Shown here in pieces: positions 1-57,483 of a DNA stretch of 64,000 nucleotides (the first letter of the stretch is position 1; every line of letters starts with the position of its first letter). The notes under the pieces are model-generated. The model saw only the letters and a program-made list of their open reading frames with translations, had not been told where the DNA came from and ran no database searches. The position numbers and the translations under genes were made by a program. This DNA is from Escherichia coli (GTDB lineage: Bacteria > Pseudomonadota > Gammaproteobacteria > Enterobacterales > Enterobacteriaceae): assembly GCF_003334315.1 (NCBI RefSeq), contig NZ_QOWR01000018.1; one strand, given 5' to 3'.

Positions 1-109
1 AGGCAGCACCTGGCACGGCTGGGACGGAAGTCGCTGTCGTTCTCAAAATCGGTGGAGCTGCATGACAAAGTCATCGGGCATTATCTGAACATAAAACACT
101 ATCAGTAAG

Positions 110-1308
<1,199 letters not shown>

Positions 1309-1350
1309 TTATAGCACAGTGGTGGTGACTTGACCATCGTGCGCGTAGTG

Positions 1351-2652
1351 TCAAGCAGAGGTAAATTGCGGGATGTTATGCCATAACGGCCAGCTAAACG
1401 AGAAGCGGGCACCACCCAGTTCGCTGGTGCCACAATTAACCGTACCGCCCATTGCCAGTGCTATAGAGTGGACAATTGCCAGTCCCAGCCCGCAGCCGCC
1501 GGTTGAGCGACCCCGGCTGGGATCGAGGCGAACAAAAGGTTCAAAGATATGTTCGCGGTTTTCTGGGGCAATCCCTGAGCCATCATCCTCAACAATTAAT
1601 GTCGCTTTATTCCCCGACAGTAGCAGGCTGGTTTCAACCGTTGAATGGCAGTAGCGCAGGGCGTTATTGAGCAAATTATCCAGCACGCGCTCCATTAAGC
1701 GCATATCCAACGCCGCATAATGGCCTTGCATGAGCGTTTTTATCCGTACCGTTTTATCGGGCGTTACTGCCTGAATATCTGCCAGATGCGTTGACAGCCA
1801 CAACGGCAGGTCTGGTTCGCTAAGATGAAGCTCGTTTTGTGGGCGATCGAGTCGGGCATAAGTCAGCAGCTCTTCAATTAAAGCTTCAAGTTGACTGATA
1901 TCACGATTCAACGCCTGGGATTCGGCGGCGCTCAGGTTATCGCTCATCTCCAGTCGATAACGCAGGCGCACTAACGGTGTTCGCAGTTCGTGAGCGATAC
2001 CGTCAATAAGCTGTTTTTTGCTGGCAATTAAGGCGTTGATATTGTCCGCCATCTGGTTAAATGCGACGCCAAGTCGTTCAAAGCTCGAACCCTCATCAAA
2101 GTGAATACGTTCATTGAGATGCCCATCGCCAAATCGTTGCGCCGCTGCTTCCAGTTTTAACATATCCTGCCAGTGCGGACGCATCCAGATAAACACCGGA
2201 AAGGCGAGGGAAATAGCAATAAAAGCGATCAGGGCGATATCCAGCAATCGCATCTGATGGAGATAATAAAGATAAGGAACAGGACCAACTGCCAGCACGT
2301 AGTGGCTGCGCGGGATACGCTGCAAAAACGTGTACTGATCGTCCAGGGCGACAATTTCGCCGCCACGCAGTCGGTGCATGGAAATATCATCAAGATGGTA
2401 TTTACTCAGTGGCTCGACACGCAGATCGAAAGAGAGATTTAAATCCATCTCTTTCAGCGTCTTACCCCAGTCGTGTGGGGGGATCTCACGCAATTCGCTG
2501 CGCATCAGATACAGCGAACTGTTCATCAAATCATCCAGCGACTGTTTGCCCGCGCGTTCGGCGGTAAATTTGTACACCAGCCCAACCAGCAGAGACATCA
2601 CAAGGAAGCAGACAAACAATAACAGGTAAAACTGGATAAACAATTTTTTCAT
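1351..2652 (-). CDS. rstB: sensor histidine kinase RstB
   Basis: 433 aa ORF with N-terminal transmembrane segments, HAMP region and HisKA/HATPase motifs; synteny with rstA. Confidence 0.92.
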   Translation of the reverse strand: MKKLFIQFYLLLFVCFLVMSLLVGLVYKFTAERAGKQSLDDLMNSSLYLMRSELREIPPHDWGKTLKEMDLNLSFDLRVEPLSKYHLDDISMHRLRGGEIVALDDQYTFLQRIPRSHYVLAVGPVPYLYYLHQMRLLDIALIAFIAISLAFPVFIWMRPHWQDMLKLEAAAQRFGDGHLNERIHFDEGSSFERLGVAFNQMADNINALIASKKQLIDGIAHELRTPLVRLRYRLEMSDNLSAAESQALNRDISQLEALIEELLTYARLDRPQNELHLSEPDLPLWLSTHLADIQAVTPDKTVRIKTLMQGHYAALDMRLMERVLDNLLNNALRYCHSTVETSLLLSGNKATLIVEDDGSGIAPENREHIFEPFVRLDPSRGRSTGGCGLGLAIVHSIALAMGGTVNCGTSELGGARFSFSWPLWHNIPQFTSA

Positions 2653-2655
2653 CGC

Positions 2656-3375
2656 TTATTCCCATGCATGAGGCGCAAAAAGATAGCCTTTGTTACGCAC
2701 GGTTTTAATGCGATAAGGTTCTGCGGCGTTATCGAGTAGTTTTTTTCTTAACCGCGAAATAGCCACGTCCACGCTACGATCCAGTCCGTCATAACTGACG
2801 CCGCGTAAATTTTTCAGCAATGCATCGCGGTCCATGATTTGCCCGGCATGGGTAGCTAATTCCCACAATAATTCGAAATCAGCTGTCGAGAGCGAGATTT
2901 CAGTGTTAGCCAGGGTGACTACGCGGTTGATGGGATCGATGGTCAACGTGCCGAAATGCAGGGCTTTGTAGGGAGTCAGAGACGTTTCCTGAAGACCTTT
3001 GGTCAGTGTGGCTTGCTCATTCTGACGCAAATGCAAACGTAAACGCGCTAGCAAAACAGCAGGGGGCGTCGTTTTGAGAATATAGTCGCAGGCACCCATT
3101 TCCAGTGCCAGGATGTGGTTCATATCGCTATCGAGAGAGGTTAGAAGAACAATCGGTCCAGACCACTTTGCGCGTAAATCACGACAAATGGTCATGCCGT
3201 CCTTGCCTGGTAGCATGATGTCGAGTAACACCAAATCCGGATTTTCTCGCAAAATGGTTTCTTCGGCCTGGTCGCCGCGCGGCTCTACGGTAACCTGCAT
3301 ATCATGTTTTGCCAGGTACGCGGCAATCAGTGAACCGACTTCCGCATCATCTTCCACAAATACGATAGTGTTCAT
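2656..3375 (-). CDS. rstA: response regulator RstA (OmpR family), start trimmed to MNTIVFVEDD
   Basis: Receiver domain plus winged-helix C-terminus; 239 aa from the internal ATG. Confidence 0.9.
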   Translation of the reverse strand: MNTIVFVEDDAEVGSLIAAYLAKHDMQVTVEPRGDQAEETILRENPDLVLLDIMLPGKDGMTICRDLRAKWSGPIVLLTSLDSDMNHILALEMGACDYILKTTPPAVLLARLRLHLRQNEQATLTKGLQETSLTPYKALHFGTLTIDPINRVVTLANTEISLSTADFELLWELATHAGQIMDRDALLKNLRGVSYDGLDRSVDVAISRLRKKLLDNAAEPYRIKTVRNKGYLFAPHAWE

Positions 3376-3503
3376 AACATTCACGGTAGATATAAAAACG
3401 TCACAATACACCGCGCTGTTTTTACTTACTATCAATCGTTTCTAAACAAGTTTTCATCAGGTATTCTACTGATGACTTGTTATGGAAGTGTTAAGGTAAA
3501 AAG

Positions 3504-3839
3504 ATGGGGCTGGTAATCAAAGCCGCGCTCGGTGCGCTGGTAGTGCTGTTGATTGGTGTTTTAGCAAAAACGAAAAATTATTATATCGCCGGGCTGATTC
3601 CACTTTTCCCGACCTTTGCGCTTATCGCGCATTATATTGTTGCCAGCGAACGCGGCATTGAAGCCTTACGCGCAACCATCATTTTTAGTATGTGGTCGAT
3701 TATTCCCTATTTTGTTTACCTGGTGTCGCTGTGGTATTTCACCGGAATGATGCGCTTGCCCGCCGCTTTTGTTGGTTCTGTTGCGTGTTGGGGGATAAGC
3801 GCATGGGTGTTGATTATATGCTGGATAAAGCTGCATTAA
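3504..3839 (+). CDS. ydgC: inner membrane protein YdgC (GlpM family)
   Basis: 111 aa hydrophobic ORF; K-12 synteny. Confidence 0.85.
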   Translation: MGLVIKAALGALVVLLIGVLAKTKNYYIAGLIPLFPTFALIAHYIVASERGIEALRATIIFSMWSIIPYFVYLVSLWYFTGMMRLPAAFVGSVACWGISAWVLIICWIKLH

Positions 3840-4558
3840 CGCAGATGACGACCGCCATCAAGTGGGAAACTGCGTCCGGTGACAAAGCAACTGGTAAGTA
3901 AGTAATCGACCAGGTCGATCACTTCTTTCTCGCCAGGCGCGGTTTTCATCAGTGATTTATTCAGCGCCTGTTGTCGATATTCGGCATCATCATGTTCATT
4001 AAACAGGATCAGCGATGGCGCAATAGAATTCACTTTCACTTCCGGTGCCAGCTTGCGGGCAAACGAGCGGGTCATATTATCCAGTGCCGCTTTGCTTGCA
4101 GCATACGCAATATGTTTGTCGCTACCGCGCTCCACCACATAATCGGTAAAGTGAATGATATCGCTGGCGGCGTGTCCGTGCCCACGCAGTAATCTTTCCA
4201 GCGCATGGTTGAGCAGGTATGGGGTATTAACGTGGATCTGCATCATGCAAGCCAGTACGTCGGCCAGTGGCGCACCCGGTTTTTCCGCCATCCACGCACT
4301 GGCGTTATGCAAAATAGCACGCAGACCATGGGTGCTTTTTAGTACTTCATCGGCAAACGCCATCACACCGTCGTTGGTCGAAAAATCAGCCTGAATACAC
4401 TGCGCACCTGCATTAATCAGTCCATCAATGGCTGGATAGTGTGTCCGATAGCTGACAATCACCGGTTGCTTTTGATTAATGAAATGCCATGCGAGGGCGA
4501 GGCCGATGCGACGACCTCCGCCAGTAATTAATATTGGCAAGGGCTGGGTTTTACCCAT
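3836..4558 (-). CDS. folM: dihydromonapterin/dihydrofolate reductase FolM (short-chain dehydrogenase)
   Basis: 240 aa, N-terminal TGGGRRIG Rossmann motif; synteny. Confidence 0.9.
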   Translation of the reverse strand: MGKTQPLPILITGGGRRIGLALAWHFINQKQPVIVSYRTHYPAIDGLINAGAQCIQADFSTNDGVMAFADEVLKSTHGLRAILHNASAWMAEKPGAPLADVLACMMQIHVNTPYLLNHALERLLRGHGHAASDIIHFTDYVVERGSDKHIAYAASKAALDNMTRSFARKLAPEVKVNSIAPSLILFNEHDDAEYRQQALNKSLMKTAPGEKEVIDLVDYLLTSCFVTGRSFPLDGGRHLR

Positions 4559-4594
4559 CGTTATCTCCTTTGCTATCCAACGATGGGATGAACG

Positions 4595-5977
4595 TTATCC
4601 CACCAGCATCCAGGTCGCCGGAACTGAGGCAATTAACAGCATGCCAATCAGCACCATTTCCTGACGGTTCAGTACATTATCATGGGTATGCGTTTTGCGC
4701 GCGTACAGGAAAACCAGCAGCCCCGGTGCATACAGAACAACGGATAACAGCAAGTGCATTGGACCAGAGGCGTACAATAACCATAAGCCATAAATGCAGG
4801 CACCGACACCTACCGCTTTATGCAGTGGACGGGTTGCGATTTTCAGCAAGAACGCGCCGACCAGGAAATAGGGCACCAGAATCATTTCTGAGGCGATGGT
4901 CAGCAACGTGTTGTAATCGGAACCGGTCAGCCAGATGAGTACCAGACAAATTTGCACGCAGATGTTGGTCAACCACAGTGAGGCGGATGGCGCAGCTTGT
5001 GCGTTCTGGCGCGCAAAAATGCGCGGGAATGCTTTATGAGTGGCGGCCAGGAACGGTACTTCTGCTGCCATGATGGTCCAGCTTAAGTACGCGCCGCAAA
5101 CGGAAACGATCAAACCGGCAGCGATGATGATTTCGCCCCATGGTCCCATCATTTCCACCATCAGACCGGCCATTGACGGGTTACGAATTTCAGCCAGTTC
5201 AGGACGTGCCACCACACCCAGCGAAAGCAGCGTTACCAGCAAGTAAACGCCCAGAGCGGAGAGAACCGCCAGCAGTGTCGCTTTGCCAACATCACGTTTA
5301 TTACGCGCACGCGCAGAAACAACCACGGCACCTTCCACACCAATGAAAACCCACAGGGTGATCAGCATGGTGTTTTTCACCTGTTCCCAAACGGGTACGC
5401 CAAGTGCAAGTCCGGTGAAGTCGAGCTTGAAGGTATCCAGTTTGAACATCATCATCGCCAGCACAACAAACAGACCCAGCGGCAACAATTTTGCCAGTGT
5501 CGCCACCAGGTTAATGCTGGCAGCGGTTTGCACCCCGCGCAGGATCAAAAAGTGAACAATCCACAATAAAGCCGATGCACCGACTATCGATTGCCAGGTA
5601 TTACCATCGCCAAACAGGCGCAATTCCGGCGTGTCCGTAAAAAAGCTTAACGCGGAAAAAACGATCACCAGATAGGAGACGTTGGCGATGACTGCGCACA
5701 GCCAGTATCCCCATGCGGAACAAAAGCCGATTAGCTCGCCAAACCCTTCGCGGGCATAGGTAAAGATACCGCCGTCAAGTTCGGGACGAATGCGCGTGAG
5801 GATCAGCATGGCAAAGGCCAGCAATAAAATGCCAGCGCCAGTAATACCCCAGCCGATGAGCAGTGCTGCCGGGCTGGCAACTGCCGCCATATTTTGCGGC
5901 AGACTGAAAACACCCGCGCCCAGCATTGAGCTTAATACCAGCGCGGTGAGTGCGCTCAGTCCCAGTTTCTTTTCCAT
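4595..5977 (-). CDS. ydgI: APC-family amino acid antiporter YdgI (arginine/ornithine antiporter-like)
   Basis: 460 aa polytopic membrane protein; synteny. Confidence 0.88.
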   Translation of the reverse strand: MEKKLGLSALTALVLSSMLGAGVFSLPQNMAAVASPAALLIGWGITGAGILLLAFAMLILTRIRPELDGGIFTYAREGFGELIGFCSAWGYWLCAVIANVSYLVIVFSALSFFTDTPELRLFGDGNTWQSIVGASALLWIVHFLILRGVQTAASINLVATLAKLLPLGLFVVLAMMMFKLDTFKLDFTGLALGVPVWEQVKNTMLITLWVFIGVEGAVVVSARARNKRDVGKATLLAVLSALGVYLLVTLLSLGVVARPELAEIRNPSMAGLMVEMMGPWGEIIIAAGLIVSVCGAYLSWTIMAAEVPFLAATHKAFPRIFARQNAQAAPSASLWLTNICVQICLVLIWLTGSDYNTLLTIASEMILVPYFLVGAFLLKIATRPLHKAVGVGACIYGLWLLYASGPMHLLLSVVLYAPGLLVFLYARKTHTHDNVLNRQEMVLIGMLLIASVPATWMLVG

Positions 5978-6162
5978 CGATATCCAGTGATTAAAACGTG
6001 ATAAGAAGAATAAATATTAGGGCAAAACGCATAAAAATGGAGTTTGCCACTGAAGCGCGGAATTTTACGAAGAGATGTGTCTGCATGCAATGGTCGCGGG
6101 GAAATTTGTGACTAAAAATGCGAAAGGCGGCATCAAGCCGCCTTATAGGAGTAACTGAATAG

Positions 6163-7107
6163 TTATTTATACAGATCTGCGCTGACGGTCAGGTTATTAC
6201 CACGTTCCTGCCACTGGCGGGTGATGTGGTAATACTTAGCACCTTTCTTCGCGGCACGTTTCGCAACCTGATAGGAGACTTCGGTCATGTTGCCGTAGTT
6301 GCCAGAGAATTTGATGCTGTCGAACGGGACCATCATCGCTGCGGTCGCTTTGTTCAGTTCTTCGACTTTAGTGCCATCCGGGAGCGTGACGGTGTAACGC
6401 CCACCTTTTGATGACTGGGTTTCAAAGAAGCGACCGACTTCAGAACTTGGTGATGCGGTAGTCGCAACACCCGGGATCTCAACTTTCTTCGCGGCTTCGC
6501 CACCGGCAGCCAGAGCTGCACGTCCTGCTTCGGAATCTGCCGGGATCACATCCGGGCTCTGGACGATACGTTTCTTAGCATCTTTTTTATAGATGAATGC
6601 AGTAATACGCTGGTTGCCGCCCTGGTTGGCATCGATTTGACGAACGATGTAGAAAGAGTAGGCACCTTTCGCTTTTGCCGCTTTGGTGATGGCATCATTG
6701 ACTTCTGGCTGGCTACGATAGAAGCCCTGGACGGTGACCGTGTCAAACGGTTCAATCAGAACAGCCTGATCTTTCGGCAGTTCGACAACACCGTTAATTA
6801 CGCGATTACTTGTTTCTTCTGCTTTTTCAGCATCGGCTTTATAGAGGTCAGCGACCACACGCCAGTTACCGCTGTTACCAAAATCAGAAGTGTCGACAAC
6901 ATAAAAAGAGGTGGCACCTTCTTTATCTGCGCGACGAGAAACGGCTTTCACCGCTTCGCCAATAGCATTAAAACGACCGGTAACCACTACACGGTCAAAA
7001 GGTTTAACCGCTGCCGCTTGCTCCGGTGTCAGTTCTGTTGCTGCGTTAACGGAGAATGCCGTAGCAGAAAGCAGTGCCGACGCCAGGAGGGTGTTCTTAA
7101 GCTTCAT
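6163..7107 (-). CDS. ydgH: periplasmic protein YdgH (tandem DUF1471 repeats)
   Basis: 314 aa with signal peptide and internally repeated segments; synteny. Confidence 0.85.
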   Translation of the reverse strand: MKLKNTLLASALLSATAFSVNAATELTPEQAAAVKPFDRVVVTGRFNAIGEAVKAVSRRADKEGATSFYVVDTSDFGNSGNWRVVADLYKADAEKAEETSNRVINGVVELPKDQAVLIEPFDTVTVQGFYRSQPEVNDAITKAAKAKGAYSFYIVRQIDANQGGNQRITAFIYKKDAKKRIVQSPDVIPADSEAGRAALAAGGEAAKKVEIPGVATTASPSSEVGRFFETQSSKGGRYTVTLPDGTKVEELNKATAAMMVPFDSIKFSGNYGNMTEVSYQVAKRAAKKGAKYYHITRQWQERGNNLTVSADLYK

Positions 7108-7567
7108 AAAAATAATCCTTCGCCTTGCGCAAACCAGGTACTGGTATTGTTATTAACGAGAAACGTGGCTGATTATTGCATTTAAACGGTGTAACTGTCT
7201 GCGTCATTTTTCATATCACATTCCTTAAGCCAATTTTAATCCTGCTCAAATGACCGTCTATGCTTAAAAAACAGCCGTATCAGCATCATTACTACTGAAG
7301 CAACTGAATTGTATAAGTTAATTTAATGTTAAGTAGTGATTCGTGCCGGGGCGATGTCTCGTTTTACCCGACCGTCGAAGACAATTATCAGTCTTTATCC
7401 GGCGTTCTAAGGTGTTTATCCCACTATCACGGCTGAATCGTTAATATTTTGCGAGTTCACGCCGAAATACTGATTTTTGGCGCTAGATCACAGGCATAAT
7501 TTTCAGTACGTTATAGGGCGTTTGTTACTAATTTATTTTAACGGAGTAACATTTAGCTCGTACATGA

Positions 7568-9163
<1,596 letters not shown>

Positions 9164-9170
9164 GGGGTAA

Positions 9171-10562
<1,392 letters not shown>

Positions 10563-43894: not shown

Positions 43895-44173
43895 ATGGCA
43901 CGCAACGTAAAATATTACAATTCTGATAATTCGCCCGTTCTTGCCTGCACGCACGAGCGGTATTCTCACGCATTCAAGTCTGAATGGTTCCAGCACCCTC
44001 CATGCACTGAAGAGCAGGCTGAATGGATAATTCAGTGTTACCGCAGGCGCGGATACGAGGTTAAGAAAGCTCTTAGTCTCGACTACCGTCACTGGATAAT
44101 CTCAGTCAGATTGCCTTACTCCGAACGCCCACCGCGTCCGTCCCGTACATTCCAGCAACGCATCTGGAGGTAA
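43895..44173 (+). CDS. hypothetical protein (92 aa)
   Basis: ORF between rem and ydfU-like gene; its stop lies just before the GGAGG-GTG start of the next gene. Confidence 0.45.
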   Translation: MARNVKYYNSDNSPVLACTHERYSHAFKSEWFQHPPCTEEQAEWIIQCYRRRGYEVKKALSLDYRHWIISVRLPYSERPPRPSRTFQQRIWR

Positions 44174-44174
44174 C

Positions 44175-45224
44175 GTGCGGGTATTACTTCGACCTGTTCT
44201 GGTACCGGAACTCGGGCTGGTGGTCGTTAAGCCGGGCCGTGAATCCATGCCGGTATTCCACAATACCCGGGTACTGGTGGAGCCGGAACCGAAAAGCATG
44301 CGTAATCTGCCGTCCGGGGTCGTTCCTGCCGTTCGCCAGCCGCTGGTGGAAGACAAAACATTGCTGCCGTTTTTCAGTAACGCACGGGTAATTCGTGCTG
44401 CTGGTGGTGCTGGTGCATTGTCTGACTGGCTGTTGCGCCATATTAAATCCTGCCAGTGGCCACACGGCGATTATCATCACAGCGAAACCGTTATTCACCG
44501 TTATGGTACCGGCGCAATGGTGTTGTGCTGGCACTGCGACAACCAGCTGCGTGACCAGACATCCGAATCACTCGAGCAACTTGCTCATCAAAACCTGTCA
44601 GCATGGATGATTGACGTCATCGGTCACGCAATAAGCGGTACGCAGGAGCGTGAATTATCTCTGGCTGAATTATCCTGGTGGGCGGTCCGCAATCAGGTGG
44701 CGGACGCGCTACCGTAAGTGGTATTACGTCGCTCGCTGGGATTACCAGCGGAAAAAAACTGCTCGGTGTACCGCGAAAGCGACATCGTACCGGGAGAGCA
44801 GACCGCCACCAGCATATTGAAACAGCGCACAAAAAATCTTGCACCGTTGCCTCACGCCCACCAGCAACAAAACCCATCACAGGAAAAGACGGTGGTAAGC
44901 ATCACCGTTGATCCAGAGTCTCCGGAATCTTTCATGAAGCTGCCTAAACGTCACCGTTGGGTTAAGGAGAAATACACACGCTGGGTTAAGACACAGCCGT
45001 GTGCTTGCTGCGGTATGCCAGCCGACGATCCGCATCATCTGATTGGTCACGGGCAGGGCGGAATGGGAACCAAAGCACATGATCTCTTTGTGTTGCCTTT
45101 GTGCAGAAAGCATCACGACGAGTTGCATACGGATACCGTGGCATTTGAAGAGAAGTATGGCTCCCAACTGGAGCTGATTTTTCGATTTATCGATCGCGCG
45201 CTGGCAATTGGTGTGCTGGCCTAA
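44175..45224 (+). pseudogene. YdfU-like (DUF968-type, Cys/His-rich) gene interrupted by an in-frame TAA at 44715-44717
   Basis: ORFs 44175-44717 and 44718-45224 are in the same frame separated by one stop codon; combined length 349 codons. Confidence 0.55.
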
Positions 45225-45241
45225 TTTTGTGGAGTAAGTTG

Positions 45242-45619
45242 ATGCGTGATATTCAGATGGTTCTTGAGCGTTGGGGGGCATGGGCGGCTAATAATCATGA
45301 AGATGTGACCTGGTCGTCCATTGCCGCCGGTTTTAAGGGATTAATTCCTTCAAAAGTAAGATCTCGTCCGCAATGCTGTGACGATGACGCGATGATCATT
45401 TGTGAATGTATGGCTCGCCTGAAAAAAAACAACAGCGATTTACATGATTTATTGGTGGACTATTATGTCGGCGGCATGACTTTTATGGCGCTTGCACGTA
45501 AGCATGGGCGATCTGATTGTTGGGTTGGCAGGATGCTCCAGAAAGCTGAGGGCGTAGTGGAGGGCATGCTGATGGTGTTGGATCTCCGATTGGAGATGGA
45601 TGCTGATTGTTCGAAATAA
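45242..45619 (+). CDS. late-gene antitermination protein Q (QuuD-like, 125 aa)
   Basis: [24 protein letters not shown]...; position immediately upstream of the lysis region; GGAG RBS. Confidence 0.7.
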
Positions 45620-45718
45620 TTAAAGGAAAAGTTGCTGTCTGATTTTCATTAGTCTAACATTTTAAATGTTGGAATCGCAACGTAGTTATTATCATATAAC
45701 AGCTTGTTTCCTGATTTA

Positions 45719-45747
45719 GCCAGCCTCCCCAAAGGCTGGTTTTTTTC
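45719..45747 (+). terminator. rho-independent terminator downstream of Q (tR'-like)
   Basis: CCAGCC-tccccaaa-GGCTGG hairpin followed by TTTTTTT. Confidence 0.7.
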
Positions 45748-45774
45748 TAATAAGTATCATTTCGGGTGGGGATT

Positions 45775-46299
45775 TTATTGTTTAACCCATAATAGTTCAT
45801 TGACATTGAATCCCAACTTTTGAGCGGTACGCACATAGTCTGCTTTTACATTATCTGGAATAGTTTGGGTCCTTGCCAGAATCCATAGGTATTCTCTGTT
45901 CGGACCACTGACAAGAGCATACTTATACTCATCATCCAGCTTGATTACATTATAGCCACCATAGAAGGGGCCAAAAAACGAAACTTTCAACGCTGCAGTT
46001 TTAGTATCTCCAGTAAAGTATGCTTTACCTTCGCTCTCGCTCCATTTGTTTTTCGTTGGATCGTATCCACGGTTAAGTACGCGAATCCCTCCGTCGTTCC
46101 GTTTTTCATAAGTAGCGCTGACCTGTTCCAGACCACGTTCGAACCAGTTCTCGAGGCGAGCTATTTCATACCATTTTCCGAGGTAGCGGTTGGCGTCAAA
46201 ATTTGTAATCGGCTGCACACCTTTAGGTGGTGTCGGGGCCTTACATGCTATAAGAGTGAAAGAGAGTGCAATGCCAGTCAACACAGGCCATAACTTCAT
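45775..46299 (-). CDS. Blc-like outer membrane lipocalin lipoprotein (174 aa)
   Basis: Signal peptide with lipobox LIAC; lipocalin motifs (GKWYEIARL, YALVSGPNREYLWILAR). Confidence 0.75.
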   Translation of the reverse strand: MKLWPVLTGIALSFTLIACKAPTPPKGVQPITNFDANRYLGKWYEIARLENWFERGLEQVSATYEKRNDGGIRVLNRGYDPTKNKWSESEGKAYFTGDTKTAALKVSFFGPFYGGYNVIKLDDEYKYALVSGPNREYLWILARTQTIPDNVKADYVRTAQKLGFNVNELLWVKQ

Positions 46300-46491
46300 A
46301 ATAAATCCTGTACTTTTGATAGTTGAGAGTAAGTATGAAAGATAGATGAGTACGACCGATCACTTAAAGAACTTTCCTACTATATTAGGAATAGTCAATA
46401 ACAGAAAAATTGTCAGTGATGAAGCCAGAAAGGCAATTTAGTCCGTGCACTACAAAGTTTATGTGTTAATGAATTAGTCAAGGGGGAGGAA

Positions 46492-47451
46492 ATGATAAAA
46501 AAACCTGTGATTGGGATCAGCGGTTGTTTGGGCGGTTCTGCTGTTCGTTTTGATGGTGGTCACAAAAGAGATGACTTTTTAATGGACAAATTAGTGGAAT
46601 GGGTAACATTCAGACCAGTATGTCCGGAAATGGCTATAGGGCTGCCAGTTCCGCGTCCTGCTCTACGACTTGTGCGCTCGAAGCAAGGAAATATACGGAT
46701 GTGTTTCAGCCACGACCAGAATGAGGATGTGACAGAGAGAATGACAGAGTTTAGTCGTTCTTATATGGACAAATTAAAGGATGTATCGGGGTTTGTGGTT
46801 TGTGCTAAATCTCCCAGCTGTGGCATGGAGCGCGTGCGTGTCTATGATGAAAATGGTAATCGAGGTCGTAAAGATGGAGTGGGACTATTTACGAGCACTT
46901 TGATGGAAAAGTTTTCCTGGCTACCGGTTGAAGAGGATGGGCGATTACATGATCCAGTGCTTCGTGAGAATTTTATTGAAAGAGTTTTTGCTTTGCATGA
47001 GCTCAATCACCTTTACAAGGAGAAATTATCAAGAAGAGAGTTATTAGCTTTTCATAGTCGTTATAAGCTTCAGTTGTTGGCGCATAGCCAGGCAGGCTAT
47101 AAAGATATGGGACCATTTGTGGCTGCAATACACGAGTGGGCGGACCTTGAATCATACTTTGAGGTGTATCGTGATAATCTGATGGCGATTCTCAGAAAAC
47201 CAGCATCACGTAAAAATCACACGAATGTGCTGATGCATATACAGGGGTATTTTAGTAATTACTTAAGTACACGCCAGCGTAAAGAGTTGAGCGAGGTTAT
47301 ACTTAACTATCGCTTTGGCACATTGCCTCTTCTTGCGCCGTTGACTCTGCTGAAGCATTATCTGGGTGAGTATCCTAATGATTACTTGCTTACACAGAAT
47401 TACTTCGATCCCTATCCGGAAGAACTGGCTCTAAGACTGATGGTGAATTAA
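46492..47451 (+). CDS. DUF523/DUF1722-family protein (YbgA/TudS-like, 319 aa)
   Basis: N-terminal IGISGCLGGSAVRFDGGHKRD ... VCPEMAIGLPVPRPALRLV typical of DUF523 as recalled; AGGGGGAGGA RBS. Confidence 0.55.
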   Translation: MIKKPVIGISGCLGGSAVRFDGGHKRDDFLMDKLVEWVTFRPVCPEMAIGLPVPRPALRLVRSKQGNIRMCFSHDQNEDVTERMTEFSRSYMDKLKDVSGFVVCAKSPSCGMERVRVYDENGNRGRKDGVGLFTSTLMEKFSWLPVEEDGRLHDPVLRENFIERVFALHELNHLYKEKLSRRELLAFHSRYKLQLLAHSQAGYKDMGPFVAAIHEWADLESYFEVYRDNLMAILRKPASRKNHTNVLMHIQGYFSNYLSTRQRKELSEVILNYRFGTLPLLAPLTLLKHYLGEYPNDYLLTQNYFDPYPEELALRLMVN

Positions 47452-47848
47452 CTGTATGCGATATCATCTGAAAGTGATGAGTTCCTGTATGCAGGATATT
47501 TACAATCGTAAAAACTACGCTATGATGCTCATAGTGTCAGTTTTTATAAAAATCCTGTTCACGCTAAAGAAAACATTGAGATGCAATTTAATGTTGGTAA
47601 ACATACCAGCCCCAAACGATTTTATTCAATCTGTTTTTATATGAAGATATTTCAAGTGAATATTAAGAGTATATAATATTATTATTGCACGCAGCTATTA
47701 TAATATAACAGATTAGTTTAATGATTTGTTTTTTGTGAGTTAAACACATGGTTTTATAGTTGTGATGCAATGAGATTTTCCTTATTGTTGAACTGGCGAA
47801 TATTGATTTTCCACCTATACTTACCTGGTGTAACCCCAATGATATCAG

Positions 47849-48571
47849 GTGGATAATATGCCATACATATGTTCTATCATTTTGGTGTTGAACTCGTTTG
47901 GTGTCCGAATTGGTAAAGAAGATATTTTGTTTAAAAAAGGAAATGCTGTCCTCATTGAATACAATTTAAAAGATCTTTTTTCGTCAAATACAGATCATCT
48001 AATGATCGTAGATGTTGAGGAGAAAACAGTTAATGATTTCTTTAAAAACTACACACTCTCACCTTTTTCTGTAAGAAGGTTTTATCCGTCATACTTGATA
48101 GTAGAATGTGAAGATTTTTCATTGTTAAAGAACTTGGTTGCATGCTTGAATTGTGATAGCAAAACCGTGGATGTAGTTAGAAATCAAATATCACTTGCAT
48201 GTCTTGCTGTCTTATCTTCAGAGAAAATAGTGCAAAGTTTTTTGTTCGGAAGTCTTAATAGCTTAGGTTGTAAAGTTAAGGCTATTATTCACTCGGATAT
48301 CTCAGCGTCATGGAGACTTTGTGATATATCTTCAAGATTATATATGAGCGAGAGTTTGTTAAAAAGAAAATTAAAAGACGAAGGATTATCGTTTAGTAAA
48401 TTAATTCTTGAAGAACGAATGATGATGGCGCAAAGATTATTGATCTACAGTAACCATACTGTCGGCAAGGTGGCGGGAATATGCGGGTATGACAATGCAT
48501 CATATTTTGTAAGTGTTTTTAGAAGATATTTTGGTGTGCCTCCGCACCAATATTTATCAAGATTTTCTTAG
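47849..48571 (+). CDS. AraC-family transcriptional regulator (240 aa), AT-rich gene
   Basis: C-terminal AraC HTH signature (...GICGYDNASYFVSVFRRYFGVPPHQY). Confidence 0.75.
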   Translation: MDNMPYICSIILVLNSFGVRIGKEDILFKKGNAVLIEYNLKDLFSSNTDHLMIVDVEEKTVNDFFKNYTLSPFSVRRFYPSYLIVECEDFSLLKNLVACLNCDSKTVDVVRNQISLACLAVLSSEKIVQSFLFGSLNSLGCKVKAIIHSDISASWRLCDISSRLYMSESLLKRKLKDEGLSFSKLILEERMMMAQRLLIYSNHTVGKVAGICGYDNASYFVSVFRRYFGVPPHQYLSRFS

Positions 48572-48761
48572 AAGATATGATGTGATGGCATTTTATAAAG
48601 TTATTTTTTGAAGTGTAAGATTATACGATATTTTTAGCTACGCCAGAATAATTGCTGGCGTTTTTCTTTTTGAATAGATGTTCGGGCCTTACGCTAATGT
48701 AACTTCTTTCCTTCTTCGAACCAAACCGTGTACACCATCCGTTATCTGCGGAGGTGAGGCT

Positions 48762-48977
48762 ATGAAATCCATGGATAAGTTAACAACGGGCATCGCCTAC
48801 AGCACCTCTGCAGGCAGTGCTGGCTACTGGTTTTTACAGTTGCTCGATAAAGTCACACCCTCACAGTGGGCGGCAATAGGTGTATTGGGTAGTCTGGTAT
48901 TTGGCATGCTGACGTATCTGACAAACCTTTATTTCAAGATTAAAGAAGACAGGCGTAAGGCTGCGAGAGGAGAGTAA
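48762..48977 (+). CDS. phage holin (EssD/EssQ-like class II, 71 aa, possible dual start MKSM)
   Basis: [71 protein letters not shown]; GGAGGTGAGG RBS. Confidence 0.85.
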
Positions 48978-48981
48978 GACA

Positions 48982-49200
48982 ATGACTAAAAACTATGAAC
49001 TGATTGTGAAAGGGACCCGCAATTTTGAGAATAAAGTTACGGTAATCTTAACGTTACAGGACAAAGAACGTTTTGCCGGTGAAATTTTTGATCTGAACAT
49101 CAACCTTGAGCGACTTGAAGGAGCTGGTTTGGATTATTATGAAGTTACTGCGGTAAAACATGCCAAACAGTTCTTGAGAGATTTGGCTGAAAAAATATAA
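48982..49200 (+). CDS. hypothetical protein (72 aa) inserted between holin and endolysin
   Basis: ATG with AGAGGAGAG RBS, 4 nt after the holin stop. Confidence 0.5.
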   Translation: MTKNYELIVKGTRNFENKVTVILTLQDKERFAGEIFDLNINLERLEGAGLDYYEVTAVKHAKQFLRDLAEKI

Positions 49201-49224
49201 AGCGGCATTACTGCCGCTTAGAAA
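49201..49224. terminator. bidirectional hairpin between convergent small genes
   Basis: AGCGGCA-tta-CTGCCGCT stem-loop. Confidence 0.45.
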
Positions 49225-49521
49225 TTATTCAATGTCTGGTAGCTTATCAAAGATTTCGGATACTCTTATATTTGTCATATAAGCAAATTGAGATTCTGCC
49301 AGCTCTTTGGGTGATTTTCCCGCTTTTTCTGAGCCAAAAATTGTTTCTAAAGCCAGCATGTTATATTTGAGAACCTCTTCTCGAGTTTTACCTGATAATT
49401 TTGCGGTAACAGCAATATAAAAAGGCAACACTTTATCCAGAAGGTCGTTGTGTTTTGTCAGTTGTGGTAATACCACATCAAGTTGCTTACTGATTGGTTT
49501 GAATGGATCTATACCGTTCAT
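49225..49521 (-). CDS. hypothetical protein (98 aa), opposite strand within the lysis cassette
   Basis: ORF convergent with the 72 aa gene; no recognizable family. Confidence 0.5.
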   Translation of the reverse strand: MNGIDPFKPISKQLDVVLPQLTKHNDLLDKVLPFYIAVTAKLSGKTREEVLKYNMLALETIFGSEKAGKSPKELAESQFAYMTNIRVSEIFDKLPDIE

Positions 49522-49648
49522 AGTTACATTCCCTTATCAGAGGTAATCAGCCATCCCCCCTTTATTACACACGCCAGTATCCACCACTGACGGGCTGAGT
49601 GCTTAACATATCTAGAGATTAGAAACTGATAAATCCTGATAAATATCC

Positions 49649-50676
<1,028 letters not shown>

Positions 50677-51039
50677 ATTAATATTAAATCGGATTATTTT
50701 TAGCGCTGAATGTGAAATTTAAATAAAAAGGACTCTTCCATGAGTCAAAATCCTTGAAATCTTAAGGGTAAGATAAAAGGTCATTAGACAGAATGACACG
50801 TTTTATTAATAAATAAAGCTATTGTTTCATTCGTGTGTTTTTCTTTACAAAAGTAATCCTTGCTATGGTTGGTTAATCATGCGTTAATGGTGTTCTGGTT
50901 TGTTACAAAATTATCTGAAGCAGTCATTGTTATAATTTTATTATTTGTACCTCTTGAGATTTCCTTGTTGGTTTTTCTCTCTGATATTTTTTTTCGGACC
51001 ATTCTGCCCAAGGGCTAACTTCTTCAAAAGGTAATAATG

Positions 51040-51252
51040 ATGTCTAACAAAATGACTGGTTTAGTGAAATGGTTTAACCCTGAAAAAGGTTTTGGTTTCA
51101 TCACGCCGAAAGATGGTAGCAAAGATGTGTTTGTCCATTTCTCAGCTATTCAGAGCAACGATTTCAAAACGTTAACTGAGAATCAGGAAGTCGAATTTGG
51201 TATTGAGAACGGACCTAAAGGCCCCGCGGCTGTTCATGTTGTGGCACTTTGA
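51040..51252 (+). CDS. cold shock protein (CspA family; CspB/CspI-like)
   Basis: [38 protein letters not shown]... RNP1/RNP2 motifs. Confidence 0.9.
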
Positions 51253-51561
51253 GGTAGAAAATATTACAAACCATATTCACTTTAGATGCCCGTGTTGCCA
51301 TGGTTCTCAGTATAGAACATCATCTTTTGATGTTTCTGACAGGAATCCTTTCGGGGCAAAATGTATCTTTTGTAAATCAATGATGATTACATTTGATAAT
51401 ATTTCACAATACTTAAATGTTAGCCGTCTGTCGTTAGATTTAAGAAAGTGAAAATGAAGGCTCCTTCGGGAGCTTTTTTGCTTAGTGTCTAGTCGATGGA
51501 TACTCACATATTACGGTAACATTATGAAAAAAATAATAGTTTTTTTAACTCTGAACCAGCA

Positions 51562-51753
51562 ATGGTAGTGCCAGTGATGACCGGAGTTAACACCATCATG
51601 CGTGAATATCCAAATGGCGAAACAACACACCTCACTGTAATGGCTGCAGGGTTTCCATCTCTGACCGGAGATCATAAAGTCATTTATGTAGCAGCGGATC
51701 GGCATGTAACTTCAGAAGAAATTCTGGAAGCAGCAATGAGACTCTTGAATTGA
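51562..51753 (+). CDS. hypothetical protein (63 aa)
   Basis: ORF only; no RBS check; position of ynfN in K-12 Qin. Confidence 0.3.
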   Translation: MVVPVMTGVNTIMREYPNGETTHLTVMAAGFPSLTGDHKVIYVAADRHVTSEEILEAAMRLLN

Positions 51754-51925
51754 TTTGATTCTAATGCATTGATAATAAATGATAATCATCTTTATCTGTT
51801 TGTGTGAAATTTAGACCGTCGTATGTTGATTATTGCGATGTTTCATCTTATCTTTTATACGCTTGCTCCATATAATTGACACTACTGTGTACCAGGAAAG
51901 TCATAACAGACTAAAAGAGGAAATG

Positions 51926-52099
51926 ATGAACATTGAAGAGTTAAAAACAAAAACAGAAGCAGATATTTCTGAATATATAACAAAAAAAATCATTGAGCTT
52001 AAGAAAAAGACCGGGAAAGAAGTTACCAGTATCCAGTTTACTGCACGGGAAAAAATGACTGGTCTTGAAAGCTATGATATCAAGATTGATTTAATCTAG
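51926..52099 (+). CDS. gnsB: GnsA/GnsB-family protein (57 aa)
   Basis: MNIEELKTKTEADISEYITKKIIELKKKTGKEVTSIQFTAREKMTGLESYDIKIDLI; AAAGAGGAA RBS. Confidence 0.8.
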   Translation: MNIEELKTKTEADISEYITKKIIELKKKTGKEVTSIQFTAREKMTGLESYDIKIDLI

Positions 52100-52164
52100 T
52101 CTGTTTATAGCATTAGCATCAATTTCTCATCAGATGCTATTCAACAATACAAATTACCCATAAA

Positions 52165-52186
52165 CCTCGTTTTTACGGGGTTTTGT
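52165..52186 (+). terminator. rho-independent terminator after gnsB
   Basis: CCTCGT-tttt-ACGGGG hairpin followed by TTTT. Confidence 0.55.
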
Positions 52187-52394
52187 TATATTTAAACATT
52201 ACCGAATAGGTATAAATCTCGATTGTCGATGGTATTGGTTGTGTGACAATACCTAGTCTTTTCGGTATGCCTGAAGAGAATACAAACGACAGATTATGTA
52301 AGGGAAACGCGCTGAATCTTTCACTCTTTCATGCTGAGTGATTTGACGTTATATTTTTAGCCGTAAGTGAAGAGCAAACGCATGGAGCGACAAA

Positions 52395-52601
52395 ATGCAT
52401 AAAGATCAATACACTGATGCCCCCTCCCAGGAGCAGGTTCGTGTAAAAACTATGCTTAATAGCACCATTTCGATGGGTTACCCGGATGTTGTAATTGCAT
52501 GTATAGAACATCAAGTGTCTCTGGAAGCATTCAGGGCAATTGAGGCCGCGTTAGTAAAGCACGATAAGAATACGAAGGATTATTCCCTGGTGGTTGACTG
52601 A
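52395..52601 (+). CDS. hypothetical protein (68 aa)
   Basis: ATG with GGAG RBS about 10 nt upstream. Confidence 0.4.
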
Positions 52602-52966
52602 TCACCATAACTGCTAACCATTCTGACCATTTCACAAGTGACAGAGTCAATATCGTATTCTGTCACTGTCAGGCTAATACAGCAATGCAATTCAACTACA
52701 GCAATGCCTCGTATTTAGGTGAATTTACAATATCGTCCAGTTCGGATGCCGGCTGCATTTCTGAAGATAAGGCATTTCGGTTCTCGTATTTTCCCCTCAT
52801 GCTCGTCAGTCCTGCGCGTAGTAAGAGACAGGACACTCACACTAATTTGTGTGGGCATGCTGTGATGTCCTTCTGAATTATCCCCATGCCATTATGTAAA
52901 GCTCTGTTACAGATGCTCGTCACGGTTGTCAGGCTGTCGGGTCCTCCCAGTGGGGGGCCCTGCCAC

Positions 52967-52984
52967 GGGGCGGGAGCGTCGCGG
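52967..52984. other. candidate cos site (cosN-like) upstream of terminase
   Basis: ACG-GGGCGGGAGCGT-CGCGG resembles lambda ACG-GGGCGGCGACCT-CGCGG; lies about 170 bp before the terminase small subunit start. Confidence 0.5.
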
Positions 52985-53151
52985 AAAAAGGCTAGTTTTT
53001 GCATTTCCATGGTGGCGGCAGCATGTTTGGTAATTTATTGATAATTAAAAGTTATTTCTCTTTTCAGCTGTACAATATTTTTTTCTCCCTGTCATTAGAC
53101 TAGTTTGCAATTAATTGAAATATATAAATAAACCTGATTTTCACCTGCCAG

Positions 53152-53691
53152 ATGGAGTTGCTTATGTCAAATGTGAGCGGGATCGGTGATGCTTATTACT
53201 GGAGTGTTTTTAAAATCGCCGAGGCCTTTGGGCTTCACCGGGACACAGTAAAAAAACGGCTCCTCGCGGCCAACACTCCTGTGGCTGCGACTGTCAGGGG
53301 GAACCCCGTTTACGCCCTGCAGCATGTCGGGCCTGCCCTGTTTAGTGTGAAGCATGAGGCAGCAGACTCTGTTCATGATCCATCCCGTATGGAGCCGAAA
53401 GAGAGAAAGGACTGGTACCAGTCGGAAAATGAAAGGATCAAGTTGGAAAAGGAGCAGCGAAAACTCATCCCCGTTGATGAAGTAGTCATCGTCTATTCGT
53501 CCATGAGAAAGGCTGTCGTCCAGGTTCTGGAGACAATTCCGGATGTTCTTGAACGCGATTGCGCCCTGACTCCTCAGGCCGTTGGCGTTGTACAGCAGGC
53601 CATTGATGACCTGCGATACACTCTTCAGGAAAAATCCTACGAGGCTTGTGCTGCTGAATTAATTCCTGATGAGGAAGGAGAGAGTCTCTAG
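53152..53691 (+). CDS. terminase small subunit (Nu1-like)
   Basis: Position and size; N-terminal HTH-like region; followed immediately by the large subunit. Confidence 0.7.
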   Translation: MELLMSNVSGIGDAYYWSVFKIAEAFGLHRDTVKKRLLAANTPVAATVRGNPVYALQHVGPALFSVKHEAADSVHDPSRMEPKERKDWYQSENERIKLEKEQRKLIPVDEVVIVYSSMRKAVVQVLETIPDVLERDCALTPQAVGVVQQAIDDLRYTLQEKSYEACAAELIPDEEGESL

Positions 53692-53699
53692 GAGGAATA

Positions 53700-55799
53700 A
53701 TGGGTTTTTCATCAGCCCGAAATTTGGGAAGGGACATATCGGCAGGATTTTCCCCACCACGTCGCATGCCGATTTCGGAGGCTGTTAAAAAATTCATGCG
53801 TGTTCCCAAGGGGGCTGGTAACTCGGTGCCATGGGATCCTGAACTGACACCCTACATCATTGAGCCCATGAACTGCCTGGCATCGCGTGAATACGATGCG
53901 GTGATTTTTGTTGGTCCTGCGCGAACAGGGAAGACCATTGGTCTGATCGATGGATGGATTGTCTATACCATCGTTTGCGATCCTTCGGACATGCTCGTTG
54001 TGCAGATGACCGAAGATAAGGCCCGCGAGCATTCAAAAAAGCGCCTCGACAGAACGTTCAGAAGCAGTGCGGCGGTAAAGAAAAGAATGAGTCCACGTCG
54101 TAATGACAATAATGTCCATGATAAGACGTTCAGGGATGGCTCGTTCCTTAAAATTGGTTGGCCCTCGGTCAACATTATGTCGTCGTCGGATTACCGGTTT
54201 GTCGCCTTAACCGATTACGACCGTTTTCCGGAGAATATCGACAGCGAGGGTGATGGTTTCTCCCTGGCCTCAAAACGTACCACCACATTTATGTCCGCCG
54301 GGATGACTCTGGTGGAGAGCTCGCCGGGACGTGACATCTGCGACAGCAAATGGCGACGTAAGTCGCCTCATGAAGCGCCACCGACGACTGGTATTCTTTC
54401 CCTTTACAATCGTGGTGACCGCCGCCGCTGGTACTGGCCATGTCCGCACTGCGGTGAATATTTTCAGCCAGCCATGGATGCCATGACCGGCTACCGTAAT
54501 GAACCGGATCCCTTTAAAGCCAGTGAGGCGGCGTATCTACTTTGCCCGCACTGCAGCGGCATTATCACTGCGGAGAAAAAGCGTGAGCTCAATAGTGCAG
54601 GAGTCTGGTTGCGTGAAGGTCAGGTCATTGATTGTAACGGCAACGTTTCCGGTGAACCGCGCCGCTCCCGTATCGCCAGTTTCTGGATGGAAGGGCCAGC
54701 TGCTGCGTATCAGACCTGGGCGCAACTGGTTTACAAATTACTGACTGCAGAACAGGAGTATGAAGCGACAGGAAGTGAAGAAACACTCAGGGCGGTTATC
54801 AACACCGACTGGGGATTACCTTATCTTCCCCGCGCCAGCATGGAGCAACGAAAAAGTGAACTGCTTGAGCAGCGGGCAGAGCCAGTTCCTTCCCGCAGTG
54901 TGCCAGATGGCGTTAATTTTCTTGTGGCGACAGTGGATGTGCAGGCGGGACGTCATCGCCGTTTTGTGGTTCAGGTAACGGGCTATGGCAGCCGTGGCGA
55001 ACGCTGGATTATTGATCGTTACAACATCACGCAGTCATTGCGCGGTGACAGCGACGGGGAGAGCCAGCGAATTGATCCGGCCAGCTATCCGGAAGACTGG
55101 GATGTCCTGCTGACGGATGTTTTTCATAAAAGCTGGCCGCTGGCCTCCGATCCTTCTCAACAAATGCGACTGATGGCAATGGCGGTGGACTCCGGCGGTG
55201 AAGACGGGGTCACTGATAATGCCTATAAATTCTGGCGTCGTTGCCGTCGTGATGGCCTTGGTAAACGTATTTACCTGTTTAAGGGCGACAGCATCCGGCG
55301 CGCAAAACTGATCACCCGTACATTCCCTGATAACACCGGACGAACGGGCCGACGGGCGCAGGCCGCAGGTGATGTGCCGCTCTGGCTTCTTCAGACGGAT
55401 GCACTGAAAGACCGGGTGAATAACGCGTTATGGCGTGACTCGCCAGGTCCCGGCTATGTGCATTTCCCTGACTGGCTGGGGAGCTGGTTTTACGACGAAC
55501 TGACGTATGAAGAGCGGAGCAGTGACGGGAAATGGAGTAAGCCGGGTCGCGGTGCCAACGAAGCTTTTGACCTGATGGTGTATGCCGAGGCTCTGGTCAT
55601 TCTGCATGGATACGAAAAGATCCGCTGGCCGGATGCACCGGAGTGGGCGAGCCGGGAAACCTGGCTGGAGTGTGTCCCGGACAGTACCGAACCGTCATCC
55701 TCACCGGAACCGGTATCCACGCCTGTTAAAAAACAAAAACGGAAGAAAACAGTAACTGACGATGTTAACCCCTGGCTGACTTCCGGAGGATGGTTATGA
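53700..55799 (+). CDS. terminase large subunit (gpA-like)
   Basis: 699 aa; Walker A-like GPARTGKT; GGAGGA RBS. Confidence 0.85.
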   Translation: MGFSSARNLGRDISAGFSPPRRMPISEAVKKFMRVPKGAGNSVPWDPELTPYIIEPMNCLASREYDAVIFVGPARTGKTIGLIDGWIVYTIVCDPSDMLVVQMTEDKAREHSKKRLDRTFRSSAAVKKRMSPRRNDNNVHDKTFRDGSFLKIGWPSVNIMSSSDYRFVALTDYDRFPENIDSEGDGFSLASKRTTTFMSAGMTLVESSPGRDICDSKWRRKSPHEAPPTTGILSLYNRGDRRRWYWPCPHCGEYFQPAMDAMTGYRNEPDPFKASEAAYLLCPHCSGIITAEKKRELNSAGVWLREGQVIDCNGNVSGEPRRSRIASFWMEGPAAAYQTWAQLVYKLLTAEQEYEATGSEETLRAVINTDWGLPYLPRASMEQRKSELLEQRAEPVPSRSVPDGVNFLVATVDVQAGRHRRFVVQVTGYGSRGERWIIDRYNITQSLRGDSDGESQRIDPASYPEDWDVLLTDVFHKSWPLASDPSQQMRLMAMAVDSGGEDGVTDNAYKFWRRCRRDGLGKRIYLFKGDSIRRAKLITRTFPDNTGRTGRRAQAAGDVPLWLLQTDALKDRVNNALWRDSPGPGYVHFPDWLGSWFYDELTYEERSSDGKWSKPGRGANEAFDLMVYAEALVILHGYEKIRWPDAPEWASRETWLECVPDSTEPSSSPEPVSTPVKKQKRKKTVTDDVNPWLTSGGWL

Positions 55800-56008
55800 A
55801 CCAGAATGATATCGAAGCCATGATTCAGCGTTATACGGAAGCTGAAATGGCGGTGCTGGACGGAAAATCCGTCACCTTTAATGGTCAGCAGATGACCATG
55901 GAAAACTTATCTGAGATCAGGCAGGGACGGCAGGAGTGGGAGCGCCGCCTTGCGGCTCTGATTACACGACGACGGGGGCATCCCGGGTATCGGCTGGCGA
56001 GGTTCTGA
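55796..56008 (+). CDS. head-tail joining protein gpW-like
   Basis: About 70 aa ending ...RRRGHPGYRLARF, similar to the lambda W C-terminus; ATGA overlap with terminase. Confidence 0.65.
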   Translation: MNQNDIEAMIQRYTEAEMAVLDGKSVTFNGQQMTMENLSEIRQGRQEWERRLAALITRRRGHPGYRLARF

Positions 56009-57483
56009 TGGCAATTCTTGATGATGTGATTGGCGTTTTTTCACCAGGATGGAAAGCGGCAAGGCTGCGTTCCCGTGCGGTGATCCAGGCTTATGAGGCC
56101 GTAAAAACGACGCGGACACACAAAGCCCGACGGGAGAACCGAACTGCCGACCAGTTAAGCCAGTACGGGGCCGTGTCGTTACGTGAGCAGGCCCGTTACC
56201 TTGATAACAACCACGATCTGGTTATTGGTGTATTTGACAAGCTGGAAGAACGGGTGGTGGGGAAAAACGGGATTATTGTCGAGCCACATCCGGTATTACG
56301 CAATGGGGCCATTGCCCGTGACCTGGCTGCGGAGATTCGCACCCGATGGAGTGAATGGTCTGTCAGCCCGGAAGTCACCGGGCAGTTTACCCGTCCGATG
56401 CTGGAACGTCTGATGCTTCGTACCTGGCTGCGCGATGGTGAGGTGTTTGCCCAGATGGTTTCCGGGCGCATAAACAGCCTGACGCCTTCTGCCGGTGTTC
56501 ATTTCTGGCTGGAGGCGCTCGAGCCGGACTTTATTCCCATGACCAGTGATGAGAGCAACAGGCTGAATCAGGGCGTGTTTGTTGATGACTGGGGGCGTCC
56601 CGAAAAATATCTGGTGTATAAAAGTCGTCCTGTATCCGGACGGCAGATGGAAACCAAAGAAGTGGATGCAGAGCGAATGCTGCATCTTAAATTTGTTCGC
56701 CGTCTGCACCAGATGCGCGGGACGTCTTTATTGTCCGGTGTGCTGATCCGCCTCAGCGCCCTGAAAGAGTATGAAGATTCTGAGCTGACTGCAGCAAGGG
56801 TCGCCGCTGCTCTGGGGATGTACATCCGCAAAGGCGACGGACAGAGCTATGAAACGGATGGTAATGACAGCAAGGAGAATGAACGCGAGCTTACCATTCA
56901 GCCAGGCATTATTTACGACGATCTGAAACCCGGCGAAGAAATCGGAATGGTGAAGTCGGATCGCCCAAATCCTAACCTTGAAACTTTTCGTAATGCTCAG
57001 TTGCGTGCCGTGGCGGCGGGCAGTCGTCTGAGTTTTTCCAGTACAGCGCGCAACTATAACGGCACTTACAGCGCCCAGCGTCAGGAGCTGGTTGAATCCA
57101 CTGATGGCTACCTGATCCTGCAGGACTGGTTTATTGGTGCCGTCACCCGCCCGATGTATCGTGCCTGGCTGAAACAGGCTGTGGCATCCGGTGTTATCAG
57201 GCTACCCCGCGATCTTGACCGTTCTTCACTGTATACCGCGGTGTATTCCGGACCGGTGATGCCGTGGATTGACCCTGTTAAGGAGGCTGAGGCCTGGAAA
57301 ATCCAGATTCGTGGTGGAGCGGCGACAGAATCAGACTGGGTACGTGCAGGTGGTCGTAATCCGGATGATGTCAAACGTCGGCGCAAGGCCGAAATTGATG
57401 AAAACCGCAAGCTGGACCTGGTATTTGATACCGATCCGGCCAGTGATAAAGGAGGCAGCAGTGCCGCAACGAAACGACAGTAG
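56008..57483 (+). CDS. portal protein
   Basis: 491 aa ORF between W and the protease/capsid gene; TGATG overlap with W. Confidence 0.75.
   Translation: MAILDDVIGVFSPGWKAARLRSRAVIQAYEAVKTTRTHKARRENRTADQLSQYGAVSLREQARYLDNNHDLVIGVFDKLEERVVGKNGIIVEPHPVLRNGAIARDLAAEIRTRWSEWSVSPEVTGQFTRPMLERLMLRTWLRDGEVFAQMVSGRINSLTPSAGVHFWLEALEPDFIPMTSDESNRLNQGVFVDDWGRPEKYLVYKSRPVSGRQMETKEVDAERMLHLKFVRRLHQMRGTSLLSGVLIRLSALKEYEDSELTAARVAAALGMYIRKGDGQSYETDGNDSKENERELTIQPGIIYDDLKPGEEIGMVKSDRPNPNLETFRNAQLRAVAAGSRLSFSSTARNYNGTYSAQRQELVESTDGYLILQDWFIGAVTRPMYRAWLKQAVASGVIRLPRDLDRSSLYTAVYSGPVMPWIDPVKEAEAWKIQIRGGAATESDWVRAGGRNPDDVKRRRKAEIDENRKLDLVFDTDPASDKGGSSAATKRQ

Follow-up and report, generated by a model that had tools for sequence, protein, structure and literature searches.

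The insertion sequence IS1 occurs as IS1A-type copies in E. coli and Shigella, where they are both chromosomal and plasmid-borne. Its transposase, InsAB', results from a programmed -1 frameshift that fuses insA to insB, and the open reading frame ends inside the right terminal inverted repeat (IRR) of the element. Upon insertion, IS1 typically generates a target-site duplication of 9 bp (range 8-11), and the element also promotes adjacent deletions and inversions. The outcome of an IS landing within a gene is well illustrated by two E. coli examples, an integrase gene split by IS1 in strain 4/4 and a uidC gene split by ISKpn26 in strain ES6. In both, a complete IS with exact ends leaves the coding sequence as 5' and 3' partial pseudogenes. 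Here we describe a junction with the same anatomy at fumC, located at the very start of a 64-kb stretch of E. coli DNA (referred to throughout as the window), where the target gene is a different one and only one of the two junctions is visible. The splitting of a housekeeping gene by an IS is routine in E. coli and an already known kind of event; the site alone is new to the collections searched.

The IS1 right end at the window start

As a reference for this analysis we used the complete copy of IS1 in strain 4/4 (L002), which is 768 bp long, starts with GGTGATGCTGCC..., finishes with ...GGAGTCATTACC and carries the 9-bp duplication GAAGCATTG on both sides. Because the duplication is present on both flanks, and lies directly 3' of the right terminus, it defines the true ends of the element. 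Window bases 1-123 align with IS1 positions 646-768 at 100% identity (123/123 nt, zero mismatches). When these bases were used alone as a megablast query, 100% matches were found in 4,960 of 5,426 complete E. coli genomes, chromosomes and plasmids included, where they are annotated as "IS1 family transposase" or "IS1-like element IS1A family transposase". A preliminary description of this DNA had allowed that positions 1-120 might prove on alignment to be ordinary fumC sequence; they do not, and match IS1 at 100% instead. The IS1 features of the window are as follows.

1..123, + strand: IS1 right-hand end (IS1 positions 646-768), from 100% identity to annotated IS1 copies and alignment to the complete L002 copy
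1..108, + strand: IS1 transposase (insB / InsAB' fusion frame), last 35 codons and stop (TAA 106-108), from the end of the CDS in L002
101..123, + strand: IS1 right terminal inverted repeat (IRR), reverse strand GGTAATGACTCCAACTTACTGAT, identical to the L002 right terminus

The IRR, for which we assume an extent of 23 bp based on established knowledge of IS1, corresponds to the right terminus of the complete element bounded by its 9-bp duplication, and ends in ...CATTACC (GGTAATG... on the reverse strand). The transposase CDS of L002 (IS1A family, with a programmed frameshift) ends at L002 1308, which is equivalent to window 108, with L002 1201 being equivalent to window 1. It follows that the "different ORF" reported in the preliminary description, which does run in frame 1 to a TAA at 106-108, consists of the last 35 codons of the transposase gene of IS1, although it had not been recognised as such. 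Its stop codon sits within the IRR. Taken by itself, the 35-residue peptide has no NCBIfam match, only the last 35 codons of the gene falling within the window.

The frameshift site and insA, like the left inverted repeat, belong to the part of the element upstream of window position 1. The features of IS1 that are visible here (IRR, transposase C-terminus and stop) agree with IS1: the IS1A-type copies of E. coli and Shigella have the same transposase C-terminus, the same stop within the IRR and the same terminal ...GGAGTCATTACC, and the visible 123 bases are identical to theirs. While this part of the element is without any difference, its insertion site, fumC nt 1179, has not been seen in the 5,426 complete E. 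coli genomes. No second IS1 sequence and no internal repeats were found in the 64-kb window.

The junction and the fumC remnant

The exact canonical right terminus of IS1, ending at window 123, is joined to fumC nt 1179 at window 124. This upholds an earlier suggestion that an insertion or rearrangement junction truncates fumC at the start of the window. The features on this side of the junction, together with those that span it, are listed here.

121..123, + strand: ACC common to the IS1 terminus and fumC nt 1176-1178 (the fumC match starts at 121 and the IS1 match ends at 123)
124..349, + strand: fumC 3' remnant, nt 1179-1404, residues 394-467 and stop (347-349), from 100% identity and TIGR00979, with most of the FumaraseC_C domain kept
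124..132, + strand: GAATCGTGA, predicted right-hand copy of the 9-bp target-site duplication in the case of a simple insertion, from the habit of IS1 and the example of L002
110..349, + strand: chimeric 79-aa ORF with a TTG start at 110 inside the IS1 IRR, in the fumC frame, from a mechanical ORF listing
346..1275, - strand: tus (DNA replication terminus site-binding protein), an ORF with the same layout in annotated genomes

When window bases 90-180 were aligned to the intact fumC gene of strain ATCC 8739, identity was found to be complete from base 121, with scattered matches at chance level before it. This 100% DNA identity, shared with ATCC 8739 and many other strains, continues through the fumC stop at 347-349, and window bases 121-400 are likewise 100% identical to the fumC/tus region of many complete E. 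coli genomes (megablast). Since ACC at 121-123 belongs to both partners, the breakpoint is formally ambiguous by 3 nt. We place it at 123/124, within codon 393, as the more parsimonious position, given that the terminus of the IS is then complete.

At the protein level, window 122-349 matches positions 390-458 of the 458 in the class II fumarase model TIGR00979 (E = 3.7e-31), in keeping with the earlier observation that a FumC-like translation becomes recognisable at about position 120. This match scores 108 bits, where the cut-off is 665, and of the 467 codons of the full-length gene just 74-75 are left in the window, so that what we see is a remnant and not a functional fumC. Upstream of the junction the fumC frame (starting at positions that leave a remainder of 2 on division by 3) is closed by the TGA at 86-88 and the TAA at 92-94, so that the discontinuity of the frame reported previously is borne out by the sequence; with IS1 matched at 100% on one side and no resemblance to fumC there, it does not arise by chance. 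In precomputed Pfam annotations of split fumC products from other contigs, PF00206 (Lyase_1) covers the 5' part of the protein and PF10415 (FumaraseC_C) the last 61 residues. Given this placement, IS1 parts the catalytic core of FumC from most of its C-terminal domain.

A comparison with close relatives, in which the intact gene encodes WP_001099115.1, shows both what is kept and what is lost at this locus. Window 121-349 is identical to the 3' end of that gene. The convergent tus gene overlaps the fumC stop by 4 nt, exactly as it does in intact genomes, and its product is a 309-aa protein whose exact sequence is common in E. coli. Whereas intact fumC is unbroken, and is preceded at the equivalent of the breakpoint by ...AGTGGGTATTGA, the gene is interrupted here at codon 393/394, and the remnant is not joined to the 1,178 nt that open the intact gene. 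The adjacency of tus shows that the remnant is at its native locus, within the native gene order fumC-tus-rstB-rstA.

We also considered an outward promoter, and with it expression of the chimeric ORF that begins within the IRR. A search of window bases 1-1400 found neither promoter-like nor terminator-like sites, and an exact-product look-up returned no gene on record for the 79-aa chimeric product. This ORF is probably not expressed.

Origin of the junction

In our view this junction is likely to have arisen by a simple transposition of IS1 into fumC, with element and gene pointing the same way. The breakpoint coincides with the terminal base of the IS, as expected from transposition, and the chance overlap is only 3 nt, which argues against both homologous recombination and misassembly. 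In addition, the closest relatives, S171-1 and ES6, have an intact fumC encoding the same protein, WP_001099115.1, and no IS1 is annotated within 30 kb upstream of fumC in either strain. The IS1 at the start of the window has thus arrived recently and is lineage-specific.

Under simple insertion, the remaining 645 bp of IS1 would lie directly upstream of the window, with the left end of the element closing in an IRL that reads GGTGATGCTGCCAACTTACTGAT (inward). Beyond this left end we would expect to find fumC nt 1-1187, closing in ...GTGGGTATTGAACCGAATCGTGA, with GAATCGTGA (nt 1179-1187) being duplicated, such that the fumC sequence at the left end of IS1 would read ...GAACCGAATCGTGA. The product of the interrupted gene would then be FumC(1-396)+VMLPTY, which would be without most of the C-terminal domain. 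For the case of a 9-bp duplication, this predicted fusion is not on record according to an exact-product look-up. In class II fumarases the C-terminal domain is needed for a stable tetramer, and the predicted product is probably inactive.

The left junction lies outside the window, and an exact IS end at the target is also left by IS1-mediated adjacent deletions or inversions. The most serious alternative is therefore that the DNA bordering the left side of the element is not the 5' part of fumC, as the result of an adjacent deletion, an inversion or recombination between IS1 copies, in which case part of fumC, possibly together with fumA, manA and more, would have been deleted or moved. The visible right junction, with its exact IS end, is equally compatible with such a rearrangement, and with a median of ~10 matching places (IS1 ends) per E. 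coli genome, there are other sites with which recombination could occur. Nevertheless, we regard this as unlikely. In the closest relatives the 30 kb upstream contain no IS1 from which such an event could have started, and hence no nearby pre-existing element for an adjacent deletion; the 64-kb window is fully collinear with relatives downstream of the junction; and a rearrangement needs two events where a simple insertion needs one. It is similarly improbable that this IS1 marks one end of a larger deletion or inversion extending from fumC, beside tus and the Ter site in the replication terminus region, with the 5' part of fumC, fumA, manA and further genes having been removed or relocated.

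Two further readings are far less probable. One is that the contig ends in a collapsed IS1 repeat that was wrongly joined to fumC, or that it starts just before the gene. IS1 is a multicopy repeat of the sort at which short-read assemblies break, and the junction is in no other public assembly searched. However, the break coincides to the base with the end of the IS1 inverted repeat and lies well inside a conserved gene. A chimera would need shared sequence, of which there are only 3 nt, and even if the contig simply began within IS1, the reads would still point to a genuine join between IS1 and fumC. We consider this explanation very unlikely. The other, a duplicated fumC 3' end in which a partial extra copy lies beside IS1 and an intact gene is found elsewhere, had been raised in the preliminary description and receives no support here: nothing positive speaks for it beyond the compatibility of a single window with a second fumC elsewhere, the remnant is in its native position with the 4-nt tus overlap of intact genomes, so that it is any intact copy that must have moved, and neither repeats nor a second fumC or IS1 occur in the window, all of which makes it equally hard to credit.

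The strain is most likely a natural fumC knockout, having lost the oxidative-stress-induced, iron-independent fumarase while FumA and FumB remain. As FumA and FumB are class I fumarases of E. coli, the cell is expected to manage without fumC unless it meets oxidative stress or is limited for iron. The gene is also one of the seven Achtman MLST loci, and an extra 768 bp within it can disturb PCR-based typing or gene-presence calls. Beyond annotation the significance of the finding is very small, the proper label for these bases being "IS1 right end / fumC pseudogene junction" and not that of an unknown ORF.

Distribution of the junction and its genomic setting

To determine how widespread the junction is, we searched for places covering at least 80% of window 1-400. 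There are 0 such places in the 5,426 complete E. coli genomes (megablast), and the junction is likewise absent from GTDB species representatives and JGI metagenome contigs. Judged by these sequence collections, the insertion of IS1 in fumC is private to this strain. A literature search combining fumC with IS1 returned only papers on MLST and antimicrobial-resistance genomics, and nothing specific to such an insertion.

A 61-aa C-terminal fumC product with an ATG start (PF10415) is on record from many contigs, and these contigs were examined as candidates for the same junction. They were rejected: they contain no IS1, and represent either contiguous fumC genes split by the gene caller or scaffolds with 100-N gaps, which in these metagenome scaffolds span fumC nt ~857-1186. 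A 100-N gap inside fumC recurs across several E. coli metagenome scaffolds from ENA (L003, L006, L008, L010 and L012; locus ~9853-9968), and in L003 takes the form of a short duplicated overlap. The gaps probably reflect the assembly breaking in the strain-variable part of an MLST gene, with no IS sequence being involved.

Beyond the fumC remnant, the window consists of ordinary chromosomal E. coli DNA (tus, rstBA, pntAB and a lambdoid prophage) that is collinear with close relatives. Across bases 124-24000 the sequence is essentially that of several E. coli strains isolated from humans, poultry, frogs, fish and pangolin, with 2-4 mismatched bases per 24 kb to the closest relatives, a figure estimated from bit scores. 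Collinearity with this cluster of strains extends through bases 24001-64000, prophage included. The nine proteins encoded in 346-10562 are all common variants, each being found on at least 1000 contigs. Shigella, with its many IS1 copies, was considered as the host and rejected, given ~100.0% identity over 24 kb to several E. coli strains and no other IS in 64 kb; by these sequence comparisons the host is an ordinary E. coli and not an IS-laden Shigella.

The lambdoid prophage occupies ~38000-64000 and includes genes for an integrase, an exonuclease, ydfU, terminase, portal, a ClpP-like prohead protease/capsid fusion and tape measure. It is found at ~100% identity in the same small cluster of close relatives, and bases 44001-64000 are covered to at least 80% in only 135 of the 5,426 genomes. 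Over bases 24001-64000, several of the relatives H53, H54, H55, H57, H65 and H66 match in 2-6 pieces, with IS3-family transposases or other insertions that are absent from the window. The IS1 in fumC, conversely, is missing from these relatives, so that strains that are almost identical differ in the IS elements they carry. The uidC gene of ES6, which encodes a glucuronide porin and lies 5 kb upstream of fumC, is split by the IS5-like ISKpn26 (L014 21376-23841), a further and independent case of a gene near this locus being knocked out by an IS.

The 64-kb window has just one Ter-type core motif, at 1286-1309 on the - strand, with its core, GTTGTAACTAA, at 1289-1299, ~15 bp 5' of the tus start codon (1275). 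Its position identifies it as TerB, the site of Tus autoregulation. The whole region is 100% conserved, and the motif is thus identical to that of other E. coli.

Lastly, among the protein clusters built at 90% identity, cluster 5, which holds the 111-aa YdgC (GlpM family), has as its representative an 811-aa TonB-dependent receptor from Stenotrophomonas, and clusters 5 and 7 (the latter placing PntA with PntB) mix unrelated proteins. This seems to be a peculiarity of the protein collection rather than a matter of biology.
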